Of a stretch of 64,000 nucleotides of DNA, positions 1 through 10,312 are shown piece after piece. Below the pieces are notes generated by a model. That model was not told the DNA's origin. It made no database searches and worked only from the letters and a program-made list of their open reading frames with translations. The position numbers and the translations under genes were made by a program. Within the stretch, counting starts at the first letter, position 1; each line of letters begins with the position of its first letter. The stretch lies in NCBI RefSeq assembly GCF_055900595.2, contig NZ_CM148325.1; one strand, given 5' to 3'.

Positions 1-2400
1 CTGCTCAATTTTGGCAATTGAGCTTAGCGGCACCACGCCACCGTCGCTGCTGGTCAGGCGGATAGTATCCAGCGCCGCGAGGCCTGGGGTATTTTCGGTG
101 TTGTGTTCCAGCACCACGCGATACTGGTTGGCCTGAGTATAAATAGTGGAAATCAGTCGCTGACCAAACGCGTTGTACAGGGCGTTATCGACGTCCGCCA
201 TGCTGATCCCCAGACGGCTGGCGCTGTCGCGATCAACATTGACATACGCCACCAGCCCTTTGTCCTGCCAGTCACTGGAGACATCAGAAAGCTGTGGCAG
301 CTGCTGGAGTTTTTCCACGAGTTGCGGCACCCAGGTGCTGAGCGCATCCAGCGATGTGGCCTGCAAGGTAAACTGGTACTGGGTGCGGCTGACCTGAGTA
401 TCGATAGTCAGATCCTGCGTTGGTTGAAGGAAGAGATCGACACCCGGCACTTTATCGACCGCCGATTGTAGACGGGAGATAACTTTTTGCACCCGGTCAT
501 CACGTTCATCCAGCGGTTTGAGGTTGATTTGTAAACGCGCACTGTTCAGTGATGGGTTAGTGCCATCAACGCCAACAAATGAGGTCAGACTTTGCACTGC
601 CGGATCCTGCAAAATCACATCCGCGACCTGGCGTTGCCGCTGGGCCATATTGGCAAAGGAGCTGGACTGCGGTGCCTGCAAAGTGCCCTGAATAATGCCG
701 TTGTCCTGTACCGGGAAGAAACCTTTCGGAATGAACACCCATAAGAGAACGCTCAGCAGCAGCGTGCTGAGCGCCACGCTTAAGGTCAGCCACGGATGAT
801 TCAGCACTTTCGTAAGTCCACGACCATAGGCGGCAATTATCCTGTCGAACATTTTTTCCGAGGCCCGGGAGAAGCGGTTCTGTTTACGCAGCGACTCCTG
901 GCTGAGCATCCGCGCGCACATCATCGGTGTCAGGGTCAGAGACACCACGGCTGAGATCAAAATCGCGACGGCCAGAGTAATAGCAAATTCGCGGAACAGT
1001 CGCCCGACGATATCGCCCATAAACAGCAGTGGGATCAACACCGCAATCAGTGAGAAGGTCAGCGAGATAATGGTAAAGCCGATTTCACCCGCGCCCTTGA
1101 GCGCCGCCGCCAACGGTTTTTCGCCTTTTTCGATATAGCGGGAAATGTTTTCGATCACCACGATGGCGTCATCGACCACGAATCCGGTGGCGATAGTTAA
1201 CGCCATCAGCGTCAGGTTATTGATTGAAAAATCGAGAAACACCATAACCGCAAAGGTGCCAATTAACGACAGCGGCACGGCGACGCCAGGAATGATAGTC
1301 GCCGGAATATTGCGCAAAAACAGGTAGATAATCATGACTACCAGCGCGATAGCCATCATCAATTCAAACTGGGTATCGTTGACCGATGCGCGGATATTGG
1401 TAGTGCGATCGGAAAGTACCGTCACTTTTACCGATTTCGGCAGACTCTCGGTGAGCTGTGGCAGCATCTGCCGGATGCTGTCGGCGGTGGAGATAATGTT
1501 AGCACCAGGCTGGCGCTGAACATTCATCACAATGGCCTGTTCTTTGTTCGCCCATGCGCCAAGCCAACTGTTTTCTGCGCCTTGTTCAACGGTTGCGACA
1601 TCACCAAGACGAATCGGCGCGCCGTTCTGGTAGGCAATAATTAGCTGGCGATACTCTTCGGCGGATTGCATCTGGTCGTTCGCGGAAAGGGTGACCGCGC
1701 GGGAAGGGCCGTCGAGGCTACCTTTAGCCGAGTTAACGTTAGCACCGGTAATGGCGGTGCGCACGGTTTCGCTGGTCAGGCCGAGGGCGGCAATCGCCTG
1801 GGCGTTAAGTTTGACGCGAACAGCCGGACGCTGACCGCCGGAAAGCGTCACCAGCCCGACGCCGGAAATCTGCGAGATCTTCTGCGCGACGCGGGTTTCC
1901 ACCATATCTTCCACTTGCGTCATCGGCATGGCGGTTGATGTGACGGCAAGCGTCATGATCGGCGGATCTGCCGGATTCACTTTGCTGTATACCGGAGGGT
2001 TAGGCAGATCGCTCGGCAACAGGTTAGTGGCGGCGTTAATCGCGGCCTGCACTTCCTGCTCGGCGACATCCAGCGGCAATGTTAGCTGGAATTGCAAGGT
2101 GATAACTGACGCGCCGCCGGAACTTTGCGATGACATCTGTTTCAGGCCAGACATCTGCCCAAATTGGCGTTCGAGCGGCGCAGTAACGGCGGAGGTCATG
2201 ACATCCGGGCTGGCGCCAGGGTAGAGCGTGACCACCTGAATGGTCGGATAGTCCACTTCCGGCAGCGCCGAAACGGGCAGGGCGCGATATCCGATAATCC
2301 CGGCGAGTAAGATCGCCACCATCAGCAGCGTGGTGGCAACAGGACGCATAATAAACAGGCGCGACGGACCGCCTGTGCTGCTCGGGGGTAACACCTGCAT
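1..2400 (-). CDS. mdtB: Multidrug efflux RND permease MdtB, N-terminal part; gene continues beyond window start
   Basis: Reverse-strand ATG at 2400-2398 reads [20 protein letters not shown], which I recognise as the MdtB N-terminus. It overlaps the mdtA stop (ATGA). No stop codon in window, hence absent from ORF track. Confidence 0.85.
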
Positions 2401-3647
2401 CAGGAGCGTGCTCCTTTTTTCGCGTATTCGCGGCTGGTGGCTTTCTCTTCCGAAGTGGTGGCGCTCTGGGCTTCCACTACTTCCACTTTCGCCCCTTCGG
2501 TCAGGCGATCAATGCCGTCTGTCACTACGCGGTCGCCCGCAGAAATACCTGCGCGGATAACCACTTTCTCACTGTCCTGAATGCCCGGCGTCACCAGATG
2601 TTTGCTGACCTTGTTTTCGCTATTCAGCACCCAGACAAAATGGCCTTCATTGCCCATTTGCAGGGCGGCAGTTGGGATCACCACGGCGTTTTGTTCGGTG
2701 TCGACTAACATACGCGCGTTAACAAACTGATTGGGAAACAGTGCATCATCCTGATTATTAAAGCGTGCTTTCACTTTAATCGTACCGGTAGTGGCATCGA
2801 TTTGGTTATCGAGACTTAACAGCGTGCCTTCACTTAATTTCTTCGAGTTGGTGCGATCCCAGGCTTCTACCACCAGCGGTTTTCCGGCTTTTTGCGCCTG
2901 CACAACGGTAGCGATATCGCTTTCCGGCAGGGTAAAGACTAAATCGATAGGGTGCGTCTGGGTGATCACCACAATCCCGGTGGTATCACCACTGGAGATT
3001 TGGTTACCAACATCAACCTGCTTGAGACCAACGCGACCATCGACTGGCGCGGTGATGCGGCTCCAGTCGAGTTGCAGCTGTGCGCTGGCGACGCTTGCTT
3101 CATCAGCCTTAATGGTGCCTTCGGTTTCACTGACCAGCGCCTGTTGGGCATCCAGTTCCTGACGGGAGACGAGATTGGTTTTTGCCAGTTGCTGATAACG
3201 CGCTAAATCACGGCGGGCGTTGGCAAGCGTGGCTTTATCTTTTGCCAGTTGGCCCTGGGCTTGTGCTAATGCAACTTTGAACTGGCTGGGGTCAATTTCT
3301 GCCAGTAAATCGCCTGCTTTGACCTGCTGACCCTCCTGGAAATGTAATGCCATCAGTTGACCATCTACGCGACTGCGCACCGTAACGGTGTTAGCAGCGG
3401 TAATCGTACCAAGCCCGGTGAGGTAACGCGGAACTGCCTGTTCTACGGCTGTCGCCGCCTGAACCGGGGCTAATGGGCCGGAACGCATACCACGGCGACC
3501 ACCCGCTGGCGATTGCTGCGCTTGCTTCGTCGCACCTGGCGCTGCGCTCTGGGATTCATTGCGGCCTTGCCAGAACCAGAAAGCGGCGATGGCGGCGATA
3601 ACCACCACGATTACGATTACCCAACGGGATTTATTACTGCCTTTCAT
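2400..3647 (-). CDS. mdtA: Multidrug efflux membrane fusion protein MdtA (415 aa)
   Basis: Track ORF 2400..3794 trimmed to ATG at 3647 ([23 protein letters not shown]...). HlyD/RND adaptor-like coiled-coil sequence; synteny with mdtB. Confidence 0.9.
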
Positions 3648-3875
3648 CGTTAAGAGTTTCTCTTCCTGAAACGTTTCGCGGAATGATACTAGTGTAGCCA
3701 GCCAATAAGGGAGAAAAATGGAGGAATTATGAAACACTGTCGGGAATCGTCTGAATGGCAGGCACTTTTGCGAGCACGCATCCAGTAATAACACAGGAAA
3801 CTATTTTATCTGCGCGTTAGCGATAGACTGCATTCAGGGCAAAAGGAGGTAGGCCGACGATTTCAGCGGGACGCT

Positions 3876-4018
3876 GAAACGGGAAAGCCCCTCCCGAGGA
3901 AGGGGCCTTAAATAAGGAAAGGGTCATGATGAAGTGGATCATCATCGTGGTGCTCTTAGTCGTTAGCTACCCAGCTTACTAAGACTACCAGGGCGGGGGA
4001 AACCCCGCTCAACCCTCA
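3876..4018 (-). ncRNA. sib: Sib-family antisense sRNA (antitoxin), copy 1; ends approximate
   Basis: Reverse-strand promoter: -35 TTGACA (4053..4048), 17-bp spacer, -10 TATTTT (4030..4025). Fully antisense to ibs copy 1. Hairpin 3887..3907 plus U-rich tract on the minus strand is the candidate terminator. Confidence 0.6.
3926..3982 (+). CDS. ibs: Ibs-family type I toxin peptide, copy 1 (MMKWIIIVVLLVVSYPAY)
   Basis: 18-codon hydrophobic ORF with ATGATG start and RBS-like aggaaagg upstream, inside the first 328-bp tandem repeat. Matches Ibs toxin family features. Confidence 0.75.
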   Translation: MMKWIIIVVLLVVSYPAY

Positions 4019-4203
4019 CTCCTGAAAATATGCCTTCACGGTCAGAATGTCAATCCGCAGGCTTTGCAGTCTGCGATCCTGCCAGCAAATATTCTTTGCG
4101 AGTCGTTACGCAATAATCACAGATGAAACTATTTTATCTACGCGTTAGCGATAGACTGCATTCAGGGCAAAAGGAGGTAGGCCGACGATTTCAGCGGGAC
4201 GCT

Positions 4204-4346
4204 GAAACGGGAAAGCCCCTCCCGAGGAAGGGGCCTTAAATAAGGAAAGGGTCATGATGAAGCTACTCATCATCGTGGTGCTCTTAGTCATTAGCTTACC
4301 GGCTTACTAAGACTACCAGGGCGGGGGAAACCCCGCTCTACCCTCA
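4204..4346 (-). ncRNA. sib: Sib-family antisense sRNA, copy 2; ends approximate
   Basis: Reverse-strand -35 TTGACA at 4381..4376 with -10 TACTTT at 4358..4353 (17-bp spacer). Antisense to ibs copy 2. Confidence 0.55.
4254..4310 (+). CDS. ibs: Ibs-family type I toxin peptide, copy 2 (MMKLLIIVVLLVISLPAY)
   Basis: Same architecture as copy 1, displaced exactly 328 bp. Confidence 0.75.
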   Translation: MMKLLIIVVLLVISLPAY

Positions 4347-4531
4347 CTCCTGAAAGTATGCTTTCACAATCAGATTGTCAATCCGCAGGCTTTGTAGTCT
4401 GCGATCCTGCCAGCAAATATTCTTTGCGAGACGTTACGCAATAATCACATGTGAAACTATTTTATCTGCAAGTTAGCGATAGACTGCTTGCATGGCGAAA
4501 GGAGGTAGGCCGCCGATTTCAGCGGGACGCT

Positions 4532-4675
4532 GAAACGGGAAAGCCCCTCCCGAGGAAGGGGCCTTAAATAAGGAAAGGGTCATGATGAAGCTACTCATCA
4601 TCGTGGTGCTCTTAGTTATTAGCTGGCCAGCTTACTAAGACTACCAGGGCGGGGGGAAACCCCGCTCTACCCTCA
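4532..4675 (-). ncRNA. sib: Sib-family antisense sRNA, copy 3; ends approximate
   Basis: Reverse-strand -35 TTGACA at 4710..4705; weaker -10 (TAACTT). Antisense to ibs copy 3. Confidence 0.5.
4582..4638 (+). CDS. ibs: Ibs-family type I toxin peptide, copy 3 (MMKLLIIVVLLVISWPAY)
   Basis: Third repeat unit, 328 bp after copy 2; same start context. Confidence 0.75.
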   Translation: MMKLLIIVVLLVISWPAY

Positions 4676-4856
4676 CTCCTGAAGTTATGTTACTCCACCC
4701 TTATTGTCAATCTGTAAGTCCACGTTCTTGCGGGGCGAATAGCAAAACCCTCTGCGCTTATGGGCCGAATTCTGAAAGTTGCTTTGCCTGCTCTTATTTC
4801 ATTGTTGCAGTCGGTATGATACCGGACCTCAATAATTCTCTAAGAAAGGATTTCTT

Positions 4857-5516
4857 ATGAGCGAACAAATCACGTTTGCCACCAGCGATTTTGCCAGTAA
4901 CCCGGAACCACGTTGCCCCTGCATTTTGCTGTTGGATGTTTCTGGTTCGATGAGTGGTAGACCTATTAATGAACTTAACGCCGGATTGGTTGCCTTTCGC
5001 GATGAGCTGCTTGCCGATTCGCTGGCTTTAAAAAGAGTGGAACTCGGTATTGTGACGTTCGGCCCGGTGCATGTGGAACAACCATTTACCAGCGCCGCTA
5101 ATTTTTTCCCGCCCATCCTGTTTGCCCAGGGCGATACACCAATGGGGGCCGCCATTACCAAAGCCCTGGATATGGTTGAGGAGCGCAAACGTGAGTATCG
5201 AGCCAATGGTATTTCCTATTATCGTCCGTGGATTTTCCTGATTACCGATGGCGCACCAACCGATGAGTGGCAGGCTGCTGCCAACAAGGTGTTTCAGGGG
5301 GAAGAAGATAAGAAGTTTGCCTTCTTTTCCATCGGTGTTCAGGGGGCGGATATGAAGACGCTGGCCCAAATCAGCGTTCGTCAGCCTTTGCCTCTTCAAG
5401 GATTACAATTCCGCGAACTGTTTAGCTGGTTATCCAGTTCGCTGCGTTCGGTTTCCCGCTCCACGCCGGGAACGGAAGTTGTACTGGAAGCGCCAAAAGG
5501 CTGGACGTCAGTGTGA
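4857..5516 (+). CDS. yegL: von Willebrand factor A domain protein YegL (219 aa)
   Basis: ATG at 4857 with RBS aaagga. MIDAS-like motif DVSGSM near the N-terminus. Confidence 0.9.
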
Positions 5517-6274
5517 GCTGGCGTCTGGTTTATGCATCAGCCGTTGGAACGTCGCACATCAGCGCTGACTTGTCTTGCCAGGATGCCTGCCAGATGCAGG
5601 TTGCCTGGCTAGAAGACCAGCAGCCATTATTGTCGGTATTTGTCGCTGATGGCGCAGGCAGCGTCTCGCAGGGAGGCGAAGGTGCGAAGCTTGCCGTCAA
5701 TGAAGCGATGGCTTATATATCGCAAAAAGTGCAGGGTGGGGAATTGGAGCTTAATGATGTCCTCGCCACGGATATTGTACTGACTATTCGTCAGCGACTT
5801 TTTGCCGAGGCAGAGGCCAAAGAATTAGCGGTTCGTGATTTTGCCTGCACATTTCTGGGACTGATTTCATCACCTAACGGCACATTGATTATGCAGATTG
5901 GCGATGGTGGCGTGGTGGTAGATTTGGGGCACGGTCTGCAATTGCCGCTCACGCCGATGGTGGGTGAATATGCCAACATGACGCATTTCATTACCGATGA
6001 AGATGCCGTTTCCAGACTGGAAATTTTCACCAGCACTGAGCGTGCGCATAGAGTTGCAGCATTTACGGATGGTATTCAGAGACTGGCGTTAAATATGCTG
6101 GATAATTCTCCGCATGTGCCTTTCTTTACCCCGTTTTTCAATGGACTGGCGTCAGCAACGCAGGAACAACTCGATTTATTACCTGAATTGTTAAAGCAGT
6201 TTTTGTCCAGCCCGGCGGTAAACGAGCGTACGGATGATGATAAAACGTTGGCACTGGCGCTGTGGACAGAATGA
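5513..6274 (+). CDS. yegK: PP2C-family serine/threonine phosphatase YegK/PphC (253 aa)
   Basis: GTG start at 5513 overlapping the yegL stop (GTGA); translation [15 protein letters not shown].... PP2C assignment is from family knowledge. Confidence 0.85.
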
Positions 6275-6338
6275 ACATCGCATGGCGGTTGAAGACAACG
6301 GTTCAACCGCCAGTTTAAGCAATCAATATAATGGCTGG

Positions 6339-6800
6339 CTAGCGAACTAATTTTGCTCTTAGCTCGTCGGCTTCTTCTTTTGGATAGGTGACCAATAAAG
6401 GATCAATGGTATAACCACCGTAAATTTTATCTCCGCGCGTATACATCCAGTCTGAAATATCTTCTTTCTTGATTTTCCACTCCTGGCCATATTCTACGTT
6501 TGTAACAATACCAGGGTCATTGCTTATTATACCAATAAACATGCCGTTAGAATAAGTGACATCCGTGAGCCAGAAATGCTCGGTTTCTCCGCGATCGGTT
6601 ATCGGGGCTTTGACTGCGAAAGTATCAGCATCTTTTTTATTCATAACTTCGATGAATTGATCGGTTTCTTTCCGCGCATGTTGAATGGCGTCAGACATCG
6701 CCTTTTTATCATAACCTCCTGTCACTAACGTATCCGAAATCTCACAATAGCTTGCGGTAGTAAAAAATAGCAGACTCAACATAAGTAATATCTTTTTCAT
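6339..6800 (-). CDS. yegJ: Exported DUF2314-type protein YegJ (153 aa) with N-terminal signal peptide
   Basis: ATG at 6800; N-terminus MKKILLMLSLLFFTTASYC is signal-peptide-like. Lower GC than neighbours. Confidence 0.8.
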   Translation of the reverse strand: MKKILLMLSLLFFTTASYCEISDTLVTGGYDKKAMSDAIQHARKETDQFIEVMNKKDADTFAVKAPITDRGETEHFWLTDVTYSNGMFIGIISNDPGIVTNVEYGQEWKIKKEDISDWMYTRGDKIYGGYTIDPLLVTYPKEEADELRAKLVR

Positions 6801-7000
6801 TTTTTCTCCAGAATCCCTGTGTAGTAAAAGTTAGCAAAAAACCTGTGGAAGTGAATCATTATCAGGTTGGAATTGAATTGTATCCTGATGAAATTGCATT
6901 ATCATTTTTATTCTTGAGTGGGACTCTTCCAATATAGAAATAATTATAATGGACAGTGTTATTATTCATAGAAATATAATATAACTGCCCTTGAAACATT

Positions 7001-8947
7001 ATGAAGACAAATATAAAAGTATTTACATCGACAGGTGAATTGACCACTCTCGGGCGTGAACTGGGCAAAGGCGGCGAAGGTGCGGTTTATGATATCGAGG
7101 AGTTTGTCGATAGCGTTGCCAAGATTTATCACACGCCGCCACCCGCCTTAAAACAGGATAAACTTGCCTTTATGGCTGCGACAGTTGACGCGCAGTTGCT
7201 GAATTATGTCGCCTGGCCGCAGGCAACGCTTCATAGTGGACGAGGTGGGAAGGTTATCGGTTTTATGATGCCGAAGGTTTCAGGTAAAGAACCGATTCAT
7301 ATGATCTATAGCCCGGCACATCGTCGTCAGAGTTACCCTCATTGTGCGTGGGATTTTCTCCTCTATGTTGCGCGCAATATTGCTTCATCTTTTGCTACGG
7401 TTCACGAGCACGGGCACGTCGTGGGTGACGTAAACCAGAACAGCTTTATGGTAGGCCGTGACAGCAAAGTGGTGTTGATTGATAGCGACTCCTTTCAGAT
7501 TAACGCCAATGGAACGCTGCATTTATGCGAAGTGGGCGTGTCGCATTTTACGTCGCCAGAGCTGCAAACCTTGCCATCATTTGTTGGCTTTGAACGCACA
7601 GAAAATCACGATAATTTTGGCCTTGCATTGCTGATTTTTCACGTATTGTTTGGTGGGCGGCATCCTTATTCTGGTGTGCCGCTTATCTCTGATGCGGGTA
7701 ATGCGCTGGAGACGGATATTGCCCATTTTCGTTATGCCTACGCGTCAGACAATCAGAGACGTGGCTTAAAACCGCCGCCACGATCGATTCCGCTATCGAT
7801 GTTACCGGGTGATGTTGCAGCCATGTTTCAGCAGGCGTTCACGGAAAGTGGCGTGGCAACCGGGCGTCCGACGGCAAAAGCGTGGGTTGCGGCACTGGAT
7901 TCTCTACGCCAACAATTAAAGAAATGTACCGTTTCAGCAATGCATGTTTACCCTGGTCATTTAACCGACTGCCCGTGGTGTACACTGGATAATCAAGGCG
8001 TTATCTATTTTATTGATCTTGGCGAAGAGGTGATTACCACCGGCGGTGATTTTGTGCTGGCGAAAGTCTGGGCGATGGTGATGGCGTCAGTAGCACCGCC
8101 AGCACTACAGTTACCATTACCCGATCATTTCCAACCGACTGGCAGGCCGCTTCCTTTAGGCCTGTTACGGCGTGAATACATCATTCTGATTGAGATCGCA
8201 CTGTCAGCGTTATCGCTGTTGCTTTGCGGCCTTCAGGCAGAACCGCGTTATATTATTTTGGTTCCTGTGCTGGCGGCTATCTGGATTATTGGCAGCCTGA
8301 CAAGCAAAGCGTACAAAGCAGAAATCCAGCAACGCCGTGAGGCGTTTAATCGCGCGAAAATGGACTATGACCATTTAGTCAGCCAGATCCAACAGTTGGG
8401 CGGGTTGGAAGGTTTTATCGCCAAACGGACGATGCTCGACAAAATGAAGGACGAAATTCTCGGTTTACCGGAAGAAGAAAAGCGCGCGGTGGCAGCACTT
8501 CACGACACCGCAAGGGAACGGCAGAAGCAGAAGTTTCTGGAGGGATTTTTTATTGATGTTGCCTCTATTCCCGGCGTTGGCCCTGCGCGTAAAGCGGCGT
8601 TACGGTCCTTTGGTATTGAAACGGCGGCAGACGTTACCCGACGGAGCGTTAAGCAAGTTAAAGGTTTTGGTGATCATCTGACCCAGGCGGTTATTGACTG
8701 GAAAGCGAGTTGCGAACGCCGTTTTGTGTTCAGGCCGAATGAAGCGATAATGCCAGCAGACAGACAAGCGGTAATGGCGAAAATGACCGCCAAACGACAT
8801 CGGCTGGAATCGGCGTTGACTGTCGGCGCGACAGAGTTGCAGCGATTCCGCCTTCATGCTCCTGCACGGACCATTCCGTTGATGGAACCATTACGTCAGG
8901 CAGCGGAGAAACTGGCTCAGGCGCAGGCTGATTTAAGCCGCTGCTGA
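7001..8947 (+). CDS. yegI: Atypical Ser/Thr protein kinase-like membrane protein YegI (648 aa)
   Basis: ATG at 7001. Gly-rich loop GKGGEGAVY, catalytic-loop-like HGHVVGDVNQNS, two hydrophobic TM segments (around aa 385-440), C-terminal helix-hairpin-helix motif IPGVGPARKAALRSFG. Confidence 0.9.
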   Translation: MKTNIKVFTSTGELTTLGRELGKGGEGAVYDIEEFVDSVAKIYHTPPPALKQDKLAFMAATVDAQLLNYVAWPQATLHSGRGGKVIGFMMPKVSGKEPIHMIYSPAHRRQSYPHCAWDFLLYVARNIASSFATVHEHGHVVGDVNQNSFMVGRDSKVVLIDSDSFQINANGTLHLCEVGVSHFTSPELQTLPSFVGFERTENHDNFGLALLIFHVLFGGRHPYSGVPLISDAGNALETDIAHFRYAYASDNQRRGLKPPPRSIPLSMLPGDVAAMFQQAFTESGVATGRPTAKAWVAALDSLRQQLKKCTVSAMHVYPGHLTDCPWCTLDNQGVIYFIDLGEEVITTGGDFVLAKVWAMVMASVAPPALQLPLPDHFQPTGRPLPLGLLRREYIILIEIALSALSLLLCGLQAEPRYIILVPVLAAIWIIGSLTSKAYKAEIQQRREAFNRAKMDYDHLVSQIQQLGGLEGFIAKRTMLDKMKDEILGLPEEEKRAVAALHDTARERQKQKFLEGFFIDVASIPGVGPARKAALRSFGIETAADVTRRSVKQVKGFGDHLTQAVIDWKASCERRFVFRPNEAIMPADRQAVMAKMTAKRHRLESALTVGATELQRFRLHAPARTIPLMEPLRQAAEKLAQAQADLSRC

Positions 8948-8959
8948 GCCATTTTTCAA

Positions 8960-10312
8960 TTAACGAAACACCACTTCAGCCCAACGTGCCAGCCCGGCGG
9001 TAACCGACCCAAAGTCATCGCCGCCTGCAATCGGAATGCCCGGCAACTGTTCTGCCAGCGCTTTTTTAATCAGCGGGGATCGGGCGCTACCACCAGTCAG
9101 ATAGATGACATCCGGTTTTTCCTGGGCGTTATCCAGCGCCAGTTGCACCTGTTCCAGAATTCGCGCCAGCGGCTGACTGAGGGCGTTTTCCAGCCCTTGT
9201 TGGCTAATCAGTGTTGCCAGCTCATCGCTGATAAACGGCAGCGATGCGCGGGTTTCCGCTGCGCTGGAAAGGGCGATTTTGCTCTCTTCCGCGCTGCGTA
9301 CCAGCCGATAACTTAAACGCTGACGCCAGACTTTCTGTAACAGGGCCACTTTCGCCGGTTCGCGGGCGTCGCGTACCAGGTCGTTAAGCAGACGACCGTT
9401 AGCACTACTGTAGAAATCACTCTGCGCAGGTACATCGTTGATGGCAACCGCATTCCACCACGGCAGAATCGGCAGGGCGATGCCTTTTTCGGTTTCGCCA
9501 CCCATGCCCAGTAACGGCATCAGGTTTTTAAACGCCAGCGCGATATCCAGATCGTTACCACCAATACGGCAACCACTATGACCCAGCAGGCTGGCTTCAC
9601 GATCGAGACGCGAACGCCACTGTGGCCCCATTAGCAGTAAAGAACAGTCAGTCGTACCACCACCAATATCCACCACCAGCACCCGTTTTTCTTCCTGCAA
9701 GGTGGCTTCGTAATCCAGCCCAGCCGCCACCGGCTCGTACTGGAATACCACATCCTTAAACCCGGCACGCTTCGCTGCGCGCTCCAGAATCCCTTGTGCC
9801 TGGGCGTTTGCTTCATCGCCGCCCAGCCCCTGGAAGTTGATCGGGCGACCAATCACCGCCTGGGTAATCGCTTCTGGCAATTGCGCCTGTGCCTGTTGGC
9901 GAATGTGCAGCATCATTGCGCAGACCAGATCCTCAAACAGCGCTACCTGCTGCGGTTTTAAGCCGCTGGCACCGAGGAACGATTTTGGTGATTTCACAAA
10001 CCACACTTCTTCCGGATCATCAATGTATTGTGCCAGTGAAGAAAGACCGAACTGCACGCTTTTCGCCGTGACATCGATATCTTCTTCGCGGTTATAACGA
10101 ATCGCCCGACGCAGCAGCGCCTGCGTTTCATCGTCGTCTGCCGGAACATCATGATGGCGGTACAGCCATTCGCTTACGGCTTCACGCGTTGGCGCGCAAA
10201 GCATTGAAGGCAGCAGCGTGCTGTCGTTTTCCATTTTTAGCAAATGCGGTTTACCGTCACGCATGACCGCCACTGAACAGTTTGCTGTACCGTAATCAAA
10301 ACCAATAAACAC
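8960..10312 (-). CDS. yegD: Hsp70-like (actin-fold ATPase) protein YegD (450 aa)
   Basis: Track ORF 8960..10375 trimmed to GTG at 10312 (VFIGFDYGTANCSVAV...). DxG ATPase motifs FIGFDYGT and DIGGGTTD. Confidence 0.85.
   Translation of the reverse strand: MFIGFDYGTANCSVAVMRDGKPHLLKMENDSTLLPSMLCAPTREAVSEWLYRHHDVPADDDETQALLRRAIRYNREEDIDVTAKSVQFGLSSLAQYIDDPEEVWFVKSPKSFLGASGLKPQQVALFEDLVCAMMLHIRQQAQAQLPEAITQAVIGRPINFQGLGGDEANAQAQGILERAAKRAGFKDVVFQYEPVAAGLDYEATLQEEKRVLVVDIGGGTTDCSLLLMGPQWRSRLDREASLLGHSGCRIGGNDLDIALAFKNLMPLLGMGGETEKGIALPILPWWNAVAINDVPAQSDFYSSANGRLLNDLVRDAREPAKVALLQKVWRQRLSYRLVRSAEESKIALSSAAETRASLPFISDELATLISQQGLENALSQPLARILEQVQLALDNAQEKPDVIYLTGGSARSPLIKKALAEQLPGIPIAGGDDFGSVTAGLARWAEVVFR

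Follow-up and report, generated by a model that had tools for sequence, protein, structure and literature searches.

What is the role of a strong hairpin that lies between two convergent genes and is followed on neither strand by a run of uridines? The question is raised by the short gap between pphC (yegK) and yegJ in the 64,000-nt stretch of DNA analysed here (contig NZ_CM148325.1 of NCBI RefSeq assembly GCF_055900595.2), which we call the window and whose positions are used throughout. The hairpin and the genes around it are the following.

4857 to 5516, plus strand: yegL, a vWA-domain gene, the first gene of the yegL-pphC transcription unit, overlapping pphC by 4 nt.
5513 to 6274, plus strand: pphC (yegK), a PP2C phosphatase gene, from the ORF list, a Pfam PP2C_2 match (3.7e-52) and the RefSeq annotation of the identical strain M160133.
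6275 to 6338, no strand: the convergent intergenic gap of 64 bp that contains the hairpin, apparently fast-evolving outside the stem.
6283 to 6312, either strand: the perfect palindromic hairpin, with 5′ arm 6283-6293 (TGGCGGTTGAA), loop 6294-6301 (GACAACGG) and 3′ arm 6302-6312 (TTCAACCGCCA).
6339 to 6800, minus strand: yegJ, a DUF2314 gene, from the ORF list, the RefSeq annotation and a DUF2314 match (2.4e-25).
7001 to 8947, plus strand: yegI, a Ser/Thr kinase gene, parted from pphC by the cassette described below.

The pphC stop codon occupies 6272-6274, and the gene ends 8 nt ahead of the hairpin; on the minus strand, the yegJ stop codon (6341-6339) lies 26 nt ahead of it. An earlier note on this DNA had described a perfect 10-bp stem with an 8-nt loop in a 64-bp convergent gap, with no clear T-run on either strand. 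This description is correct, since the sequence, the repeat finder, the folding, the tail counts and the terminator scan all agree with it, with one amendment: positions 6284-6311 read GGCGGTTGAA-GACAACGG-TTCAACCGCC (5′ arm, loop, 3′ arm), and an extra T-A pair extends the stem to 11 bp, of which 6 are G-C pairs. The repeat finder returned arms at 6283-6293 and 6302-6312 that are 100% complementary and separated by 8 nt, the sole inverted repeat of this kind within 5500-7100. The hairpin can fold in the RNA of both strands, with a predicted energy for the 37-nt RNA of -19.0 kcal/mol (z -5.1) on the plus strand and -18.0 kcal/mol (z -4.7) on the minus strand, and 0 of 200 shuffles of the hairpin RNA folded equally well. 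Perfect hairpins with a stem of at least 11 bp and a loop of 3-10 nt number two distinct examples in the 64-kb window, against 0.14 expected from first-order Markov simulations. The hairpin is therefore stable and non-random.

A canonical intrinsic terminator combines a stable GC-containing hairpin directly downstream of a gene with a U-rich run of 7-8 nt immediately after it. The first part is present here, in the form of an 11-bp stem containing G-C pairs and an 8-nt loop just past a stop codon; the second is absent on both strands. Past the stem, the first 8 nt read GTTTAAGC on the plus strand and TGCGATGT on the minus strand, each with 3 T in 8, and a scan for terminator-like sites that requires at least 5 T in 8 made no call at the hairpin on either strand. 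The missing U-tracts and the silent scan both support the suggestion that the hairpin is not a canonical intrinsic terminator. In canonical bidirectional intrinsic terminators the hairpin is flanked by an upstream A-tract and a downstream U-tract, whereas the hairpin here has neither.

A weaker, non-canonical form of intrinsic termination has to be weighed, in which an A/U-rich rather than U-rich tail would free some polymerases in both directions without Rho, perhaps aided by NusA or NusG. The stability of the hairpin equals that of intrinsic terminators, the plus-strand tail starts G-UUU-AA with A or U at 6 of the first 8 nt, and some U-poor sites may be inefficient intrinsic terminators with Rho as a backup (Dar and Sorek 2018, PMC6061677). 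In unrelated metagenome contigs, moreover, the same 10-bp stem forms part of a canonical terminator that has an A-tract on the 5′ side and a T-tract on the 3′ side. Against these points, 3 U in 8 on each strand falls below the threshold of the scan, and the weighted T score is 1.5 on the plus strand and 1.15 on the minus strand, where a U8 tail would score about 5.1. On the yegJ strand of K-12 the tail, AUGAGAAAC, holds a single U, and the bicyclomycin sensitivity of the K-12 locus (see below) suggests Rho. We consider weak intrinsic termination unlikely.

On balance, the hairpin is probably a bidirectional 3′-end stem-loop without a U-tract, which caps the pphC and yegJ transcripts after Rho-dependent termination. 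We favour this reading because of the anatomy of the hairpin, its identical stem in K-12, a published Rho region at the locus, and a downstream stretch in which C exceeds G. Dar and Sorek (2018, NAR 46:6797, PMC6061677) reported that Rho-dependent transcripts of Escherichia coli end just past stable stem-loops, which have terminator-like energies without a U-tract or an upstream A-tract. These stem-loops protect the transcripts from PNPase and RNase II, which trim back to the stem, and rut-like sequence with more C than G lies downstream (PMC6061677). The hairpin in the window likewise shows terminator-type energy and dimensions, reduced downstream U and no upstream A-tract; C-over-G enrichment is also found downstream of it, as a matter of composition only, and read-through that rises with bicyclomycin has been reported, from low read counts, at the K-12 locus. 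It differs from that class in two respects: 3′ ends were mapped there, whereas the hairpin here is assigned from its anatomy, and a single hairpin here would serve two convergent transcripts within a strain-variable insertion. It is most likely an ordinary member of this already described class of elements. The downstream enrichment concerns the following stretch.

6413 to 6490, plus strand (pphC-sense, antisense to yegJ): a candidate rut-like stretch with 23 C and 9 G, by composition only.

This stretch lies at +101 to +178 past the hairpin, and its C/G ratio of 2.56 compares with a 95th percentile of 1.78 for the window. On the yegJ-sense strand, the ratio is 1.4-1.6 at +1 to +98 and 2.14 at +321 to +398, again a measure of composition only.

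Evidence for Rho at the locus comes from K-12, where Supplementary file 2 of Adams et al. (2021, PMC7815308) has a Rho termination region at position 2151771 on the minus strand, annotated as 'internal yegK'. With the K-12 coordinate equal to 2157985 minus the window position, this site corresponds, on the pphC-sense strand, to window position 6214; it precedes the hairpin by 69 nt rather than following it. The coordinates of such regions come from 800-nt windows and mark processed ends only approximately (PMC7815308). The upstream/downstream reads, low counts taken over 800-nt windows, were 54/25 without treatment and 54/81 with bicyclomycin, and the Rho score was 3.24 (p = 7e-5), based on a few dozen reads on the pphC strand only (PMC7815308). 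No 3′ end at or near the hairpin, and no 3′ end or operon for yegJ, yegK or pphC, is listed in Term-seq files 1 and 3 of Adams et al. (2021) or in the TERMITe and SMRT-Cappable-seq supplements. The lack of a listed 3′ end at the hairpin is likely attributable to the very low expression of the locus: pphC transcription was undetectable (Rajagopalan and Dworkin, bioRxiv 10.1101/303594), and the genes at the locus appear to be barely expressed, almost silent. The proposal in the earlier note of a Rho-dependent or mRNA-stabilising 3′ structure thus gains indirect support from the identical K-12 stem, the Rho region at window position 6214 and the C-rich, G-poor stretch downstream, and is weakened by the lack of a listed 3′ end at the hairpin and by a Rho signal of few reads on one strand.

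Beyond the pphC stop codon the transcript is no longer translated and runs antisense to yegJ, conditions under which Rho acts. On the plus strand, polymerase that has transcribed yegL-pphC would pass the pphC stop codon and produce such RNA, on which we infer that Rho loads about 100-180 nt past the hairpin, at the C-rich, G-poor stretch, with diffuse termination further downstream. PNPase and RNase II would then trim the tail in the 3′-to-5′ direction until the hairpin blocks them, leaving a stable mRNA end predicted near 6313-6316. By symmetry, the yegJ mRNA would end near 6282-6279 on the minus strand, a purely conjectural mirror image of the plus-strand events.

The earlier note did not cover the strain-variable yegJ cassette of which the hairpin is part. 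The cassette and the promoter-like sites within it are the following.

6260 to 7052 (roughly), no strand: the strain-variable low-GC yegJ cassette, with 37.8% GC compared with about 50-52% in the flanks.
6877 to 6905, minus strand: a yegJ promoter-like site, ATGATA-17-TACAAT, from a promoter scan.
6956 to 6985, plus strand: a yegI promoter-like site, GTGTTA-18-TATAAC, with TTGTTA in K-12.

The cassette comprises the hairpin, yegJ, a 200-bp AT-rich promoter spacer between yegJ and yegI, and diverged ends of pphC and yegI; the last few codons of pphC and the first 17 codons of yegI are affected. The same ATGATA-17-TACAAT sequence was identified as a constitutive promoter of yegJ by Shimada et al. 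(2014, PMC3946193), who show divergent constitutive promoters in the yegI/yegJ spacer and mark this spacer HNS. YegJ has been reported to bind RNase E, and its overproduction to harm the envelope (Göpel et al. 2026, PMC13232886).

Among 5426 complete E. coli genomes, pphC was found in 5410, and the match extended past about position 6265 in only about 1913-1932 of them. The hairpin was present in 1932 (about 36%), K-12 included, and always inside the yegJ cassette. In E. coli genomes that lack yegJ (L001, for example), pphC and yegI overlap by 4 nt (ATGA) with neither yegJ nor the hairpin between them, and a pphC/yegI overlap junction of roughly 59 nt replaces the cassette. The two proteins differ as well: PphC ends in LALWTE in the window and in LAMWLP in yegJ-less genomes, and YegI begins with MKTNIKVFTSTGELTTLG in the window and with MKPTLYTATGECVTPG in yegJ-less genomes. 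The compact pphC-yegI arrangement is common to E. marmotae, E. whittamii and a divergent Escherichia lineage; the two genes overlap in Klebsiella and abut with a 6-nt gap in Serratia. This distribution indicates that the yegJ-less state is ancestral, and the cassette splits an otherwise overlapping yegL-pphC-yegI operon. That K-12 and B differ in yegJ, which K-12 carries, was reported by Rajagopalan and Dworkin (bioRxiv 10.1101/303594), and Göpel et al. (2026, PMC13232886) state it again; the operon-splitting polymorphism has largely been published.

The cassette is horizontally acquired and H-NS-bound, with the hairpin at its upstream edge. The left junction varies among strains. The two edges of the cassette are recognisably homologous to, but diverged from, the end of pphC and the start of yegI, which fits homologous replacement by DNA of a diverged lineage better than a clean site-specific insertion. 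A target-site duplication, suggested by ATGAA at both edges, is disfavoured on the same grounds.

Is the stem itself maintained? We compared three alleles, namely the window type, a type roughly 97% identical and the K-12 type (about 91% over the stretch). All 22 stem positions are identical in the three cassette alleles, and the loops (GACAACGG, GACAACAG and GACAACAA) differ at 2 of 8 positions. The K-12 allele has an identical stem and the same folding energy, and its z-score is about -5 for either strand. Of the 42 intergenic positions outside the stem, 10 are not the same in the window and K-12 (24%), and the chance of no change at the 22 stem positions is P = 0.0097 (hypergeometric). Identity between the same two sequences is 84% in the gap, 95% in yegJ and 96% at the end of pphC. 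From these comparisons, the gap looks fast-evolving except for the stem, and the stem looks to be under constraint. At the divergence seen in coding sequence (5% in yegJ), however, no change in 22 nt is not unusual. No compensatory changes were found among the sampled alleles, which leaves the stem without covariation evidence, and in one genome, that of strain 201609, the stem is disrupted by a G-to-A change, which gives a C·A mismatch. The identity of the stem could be explained by maintenance of the palindrome at the DNA level or by recent common descent rather than by selection on RNA.

These results bear on the alternative that the hairpin has no present function and is what remains of the terminator or flank that yegJ had in the donor genome, carried along passively with the cassette, while its symmetry is due to DNA-level processes (template switching between the palindrome arms, for example) or simply to recent common ancestry. 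In favour of such a relic, the hairpin is found only with the cassette, among poorly expressed genes; the missing covariation and the disruptive variant point the same way. The flanks of yegJ homologues in other genera are also consistent with it. Close relatives of YegJ beyond E. coli were found only in Superficieibacter-like genomes (75% identity), where yegJ adjoins yegD and the yegLKI genes are absent from the locus. A scan of genome contigs for YegJ with strict, exact peptide patterns returned Superficieibacter electus alone, and its DNA homology stops at the yegJ stop codon. After this gene lies a strong but unrelated hairpin without a U-tract (-32.7 kcal/mol, z -4.6), which speaks for the 3′-end stem-loop reading. 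No simple hairpin follows yegJ in the Superficieibacter-like locus L072, which speaks against that reading, and L072 and L073 have yet another, different yegJ 3′ flank. The sequences that follow yegJ homologues in other genera are not homologous. The unchanged stem within diverged intergenic sequence (P about 0.01) argues against a functionless relic, as does the fact that the hairpin (57% GC) is the only GC-rich island in a cassette of 38% GC. We therefore regard the absence of any present function as improbable, and retain the 3′-end stem-loop as the preferred reading.

The geometry of the site, where one symmetric hairpin occupies a short gap between convergent genes, also suits a bidirectional terminator of the collision type, in which the hairpin pauses polymerases so that converging and trailing ones collide at a fixed point and are dislodged. 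It shares one symmetric hairpin, a short gap and action on both strands with the bidirectional terminators of convergent genes treated by Wang et al. (2022, bioRxiv 10.1101/2022.10.23.513370) and by Ju et al. (2019, Nat Microbiol). A stem-loop was reported to be required for positioning the head-on collisions of convergent genes, with trailing polymerases driving release (Wang et al. 2022). This mechanism, however, requires frequent transcription from both sides, and active convergent transcription is not evident at pphC/yegJ: the spacer that holds the yegJ promoter is marked HNS, the genes appear barely expressed, no pphC transcript was detected, and the searched supplements list neither 3′ ends nor operons. 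Collisions alone also do not predict an effect of bicyclomycin. Because of the low expression of the locus, we judge this mechanism to be quite unlikely.

A further possibility, which we hold to be rather remote, is that the hairpin is a built-in insulator of the operon-splitting cassette and, together with Rho, sets how much antisense transcription leaks from yegL-pphC across yegJ into yegI. If this were true, YegJ would be inversely coupled to the phosphatase operon, and in about 36% of E. coli strains the YegI kinase would be uncoupled from its phosphatase, PphC.

The hairpin could also act as DNA, either by binding a dimeric protein, with half-sites of 11 bp spaced 8 bp apart, or as a recombination or insertion site of the cassette, attC-like or resembling the end of an IS200/IS605 or PATE element. 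In favour of this, the palindrome is perfect and lies 13-24 bp inside the left cassette boundary, the two edges of the inserted segment both carry ATGAA (6271-6275 and 7001-7005), and TGAAGACAA is found at 6290-6298 and again at 7002-7010. Chance alone, however, should give about one 9-mer repeat within 800 bp; the search of 5500-7100 found no hairpin or inverted repeat to match at the other end of the cassette, and the cassette holds no transposase or integrase ORF. The hairpin occurs once per genome and never on plasmids, and the two cassette ends, being diverged homologues of pphC and yegI, point to homologous replacement. Neither the GTTGAA...TTCAAC order nor the 30-bp size matches the attC architecture, and an attC or transposon-end hairpin is rejected for this reason and for the missing partner site and recombinase. 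The stem likewise did not recur at other cassette borders: allowing any 8-nt loop, we found it in 49 metagenome contigs, one of which (L056) is the E. coli locus studied here, with all the rest in unrelated contexts. Several of these matches are textbook terminators (A-tract, hairpin, T-tract), and about 13 of the 49 contigs represent one unrelated soil-metagenome element; a wider hairpin family is rejected accordingly. Given the lack of a partner site, of a recombinase and of recurrence elsewhere, a DNA-level role is very unlikely.

A repetitive element of the REP/BIME type, which would likewise be an extragenic palindrome potentially stabilising the upstream mRNA, is rejected because the hairpin is unique in the window (no further copies with up to 3 mismatches) and single-copy, at one place per genome, in all 1932 E. 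coli genomes that carry it, has no match to Rfam or a repeat family, and is unrelated to REP in sequence. An Rfam scan of 4000-9000 with E-values up to 10 gave no match at the hairpin; the only real matches nearby were Sib RNAs, upstream of yegL. No copy of the hairpin was found on plasmids, and no genuine plasmid copy of yegJ was found either, the E. coli matches being multi-megabase, chromosome-sized records or fragments.

With a 3′-end stem-loop as the preferred reading, the hairpin would have come with the yegJ cassette, which interrupts a formerly translationally coupled yegL-pphC-yegI operon. Because of this interruption, the hairpin would also mark the point at which pphC-sense transcription ceases to be productive, and yegI would be left to its own H-NS-bound promoter. 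The hairpin alone matters little; its cassette context is more noteworthy, and of modest interest. The cassette breaks the ancestral translational coupling of the YegI kinase to PphC, the phosphatase of which it is a substrate. Should yegL-pphC transcription really be stopped by the hairpin together with Rho, the kinase and the phosphatase would belong to separate units in K-12-type strains and to one operon in B-type strains, and, provided that this stop is real, caution would be called for in extrapolating YegI/PphC biology from K-12.

By setting the strain-variable segment that splits the yegL-pphC-yegI operon against positions 2860-2920 of L001, an E. coli locus lacking yegJ, we placed the two junctions of a low-GC (37.8%) cassette:

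Window 6260-7052: low-GC cassette, holding yegJ together with the hairpin and the yegI promoter spacer

The cassette was found in 1932 of the 5426 complete E. coli genomes and, wherever it is absent, E. marmotae and E. whittamii included, pphC and yegI overlap by ATGA. At either end it carries sequence homologous to, but diverged from, pphC and yegI, respectively, and this suggests acquisition via homologous replacement from a diverged lineage. The difference in the yegJ cassette between K-12 and B has already been published; the frequency of the cassette, the ancestral state and the anatomy of the junctions come from the present analysis.

Short repeats occur at the edges of the cassette: TGAAGACAA is present at window 6290-6298, where it spans arm and loop of the hairpin, and again at the yegI start (7002-7010); ATGAA is present at 6271-6275 (pphC stop) and 7001-7005 (yegI start). 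Both repeats probably either match by chance or are left over from the ancestral junction at which pphC and yegI overlapped by ATGA; no support was found for reading them as a target-site duplication.

The hairpin and the left junction vary among strains. In strain 201609 (L067), the stem is disrupted by a G-to-A substitution within its 3′ arm (TTCAACCACC), and the first loop position carries a G-to-T change in STECUZB006. In the loci of strains STECUZB006 and XH992 (L068 and L069), the left recombination junction is different, with PphC ending in LAMWTE*. In E. coli strain 510016 (L006, 1290-3330), the locus is broken by two IS1 copies, the first inside pphC and the second beginning just past the hairpin gap, such that yegJ is removed and the hairpin retained.

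The 10-bp stem of the hairpin is shared by soil and peat metagenome contigs (L017, L018, L024, L030, L031, L035, L040, L044, L050, L053, L054, L055 and L061), among which a conserved element was observed. It runs from TAG through a 13-bp hairpin (CAGGCGGTTGAA...TTCAACCGCCTG) and a second hairpin (CCCTCTCTGTAGTCTCCCCCGACGGGGGAGA) to AAGGAAGG. Its conservation is confined to one side, and it matched no Rfam family at the gathering score. Beyond the 10-bp stem that the two have in common, this element has no relationship to the E. coli hairpin.

Upstream of yegL, three copies of the Sib/Ibs type I toxin-antitoxin were observed between mdtA and yegL (window 4000-4710):

Window 4000-4053: Sib match, cut off
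Window 4239-4381: Sib match
Window 4567-4710: Sib match

With two copies in K-12 (sibA and sibB) and four ibs genes in strain P19_598, this is a tandem array whose copy number varies.

In Superficieibacter-like genomes (L005, S. electus, 1453-4831; L072, 1-3462), a yegD-like HSP70 gene is directly followed by a yegJ homologue, and the yegJ locus contains no yegL, pphC or yegI. The next gene is mdtA in L072; in S. electus, the homologue is followed by Rhs-fragment-like and SUKH/SMI1-like ORFs, both called by eye from translations. The cargo of the yegD-mdtA interval therefore differs between genera.
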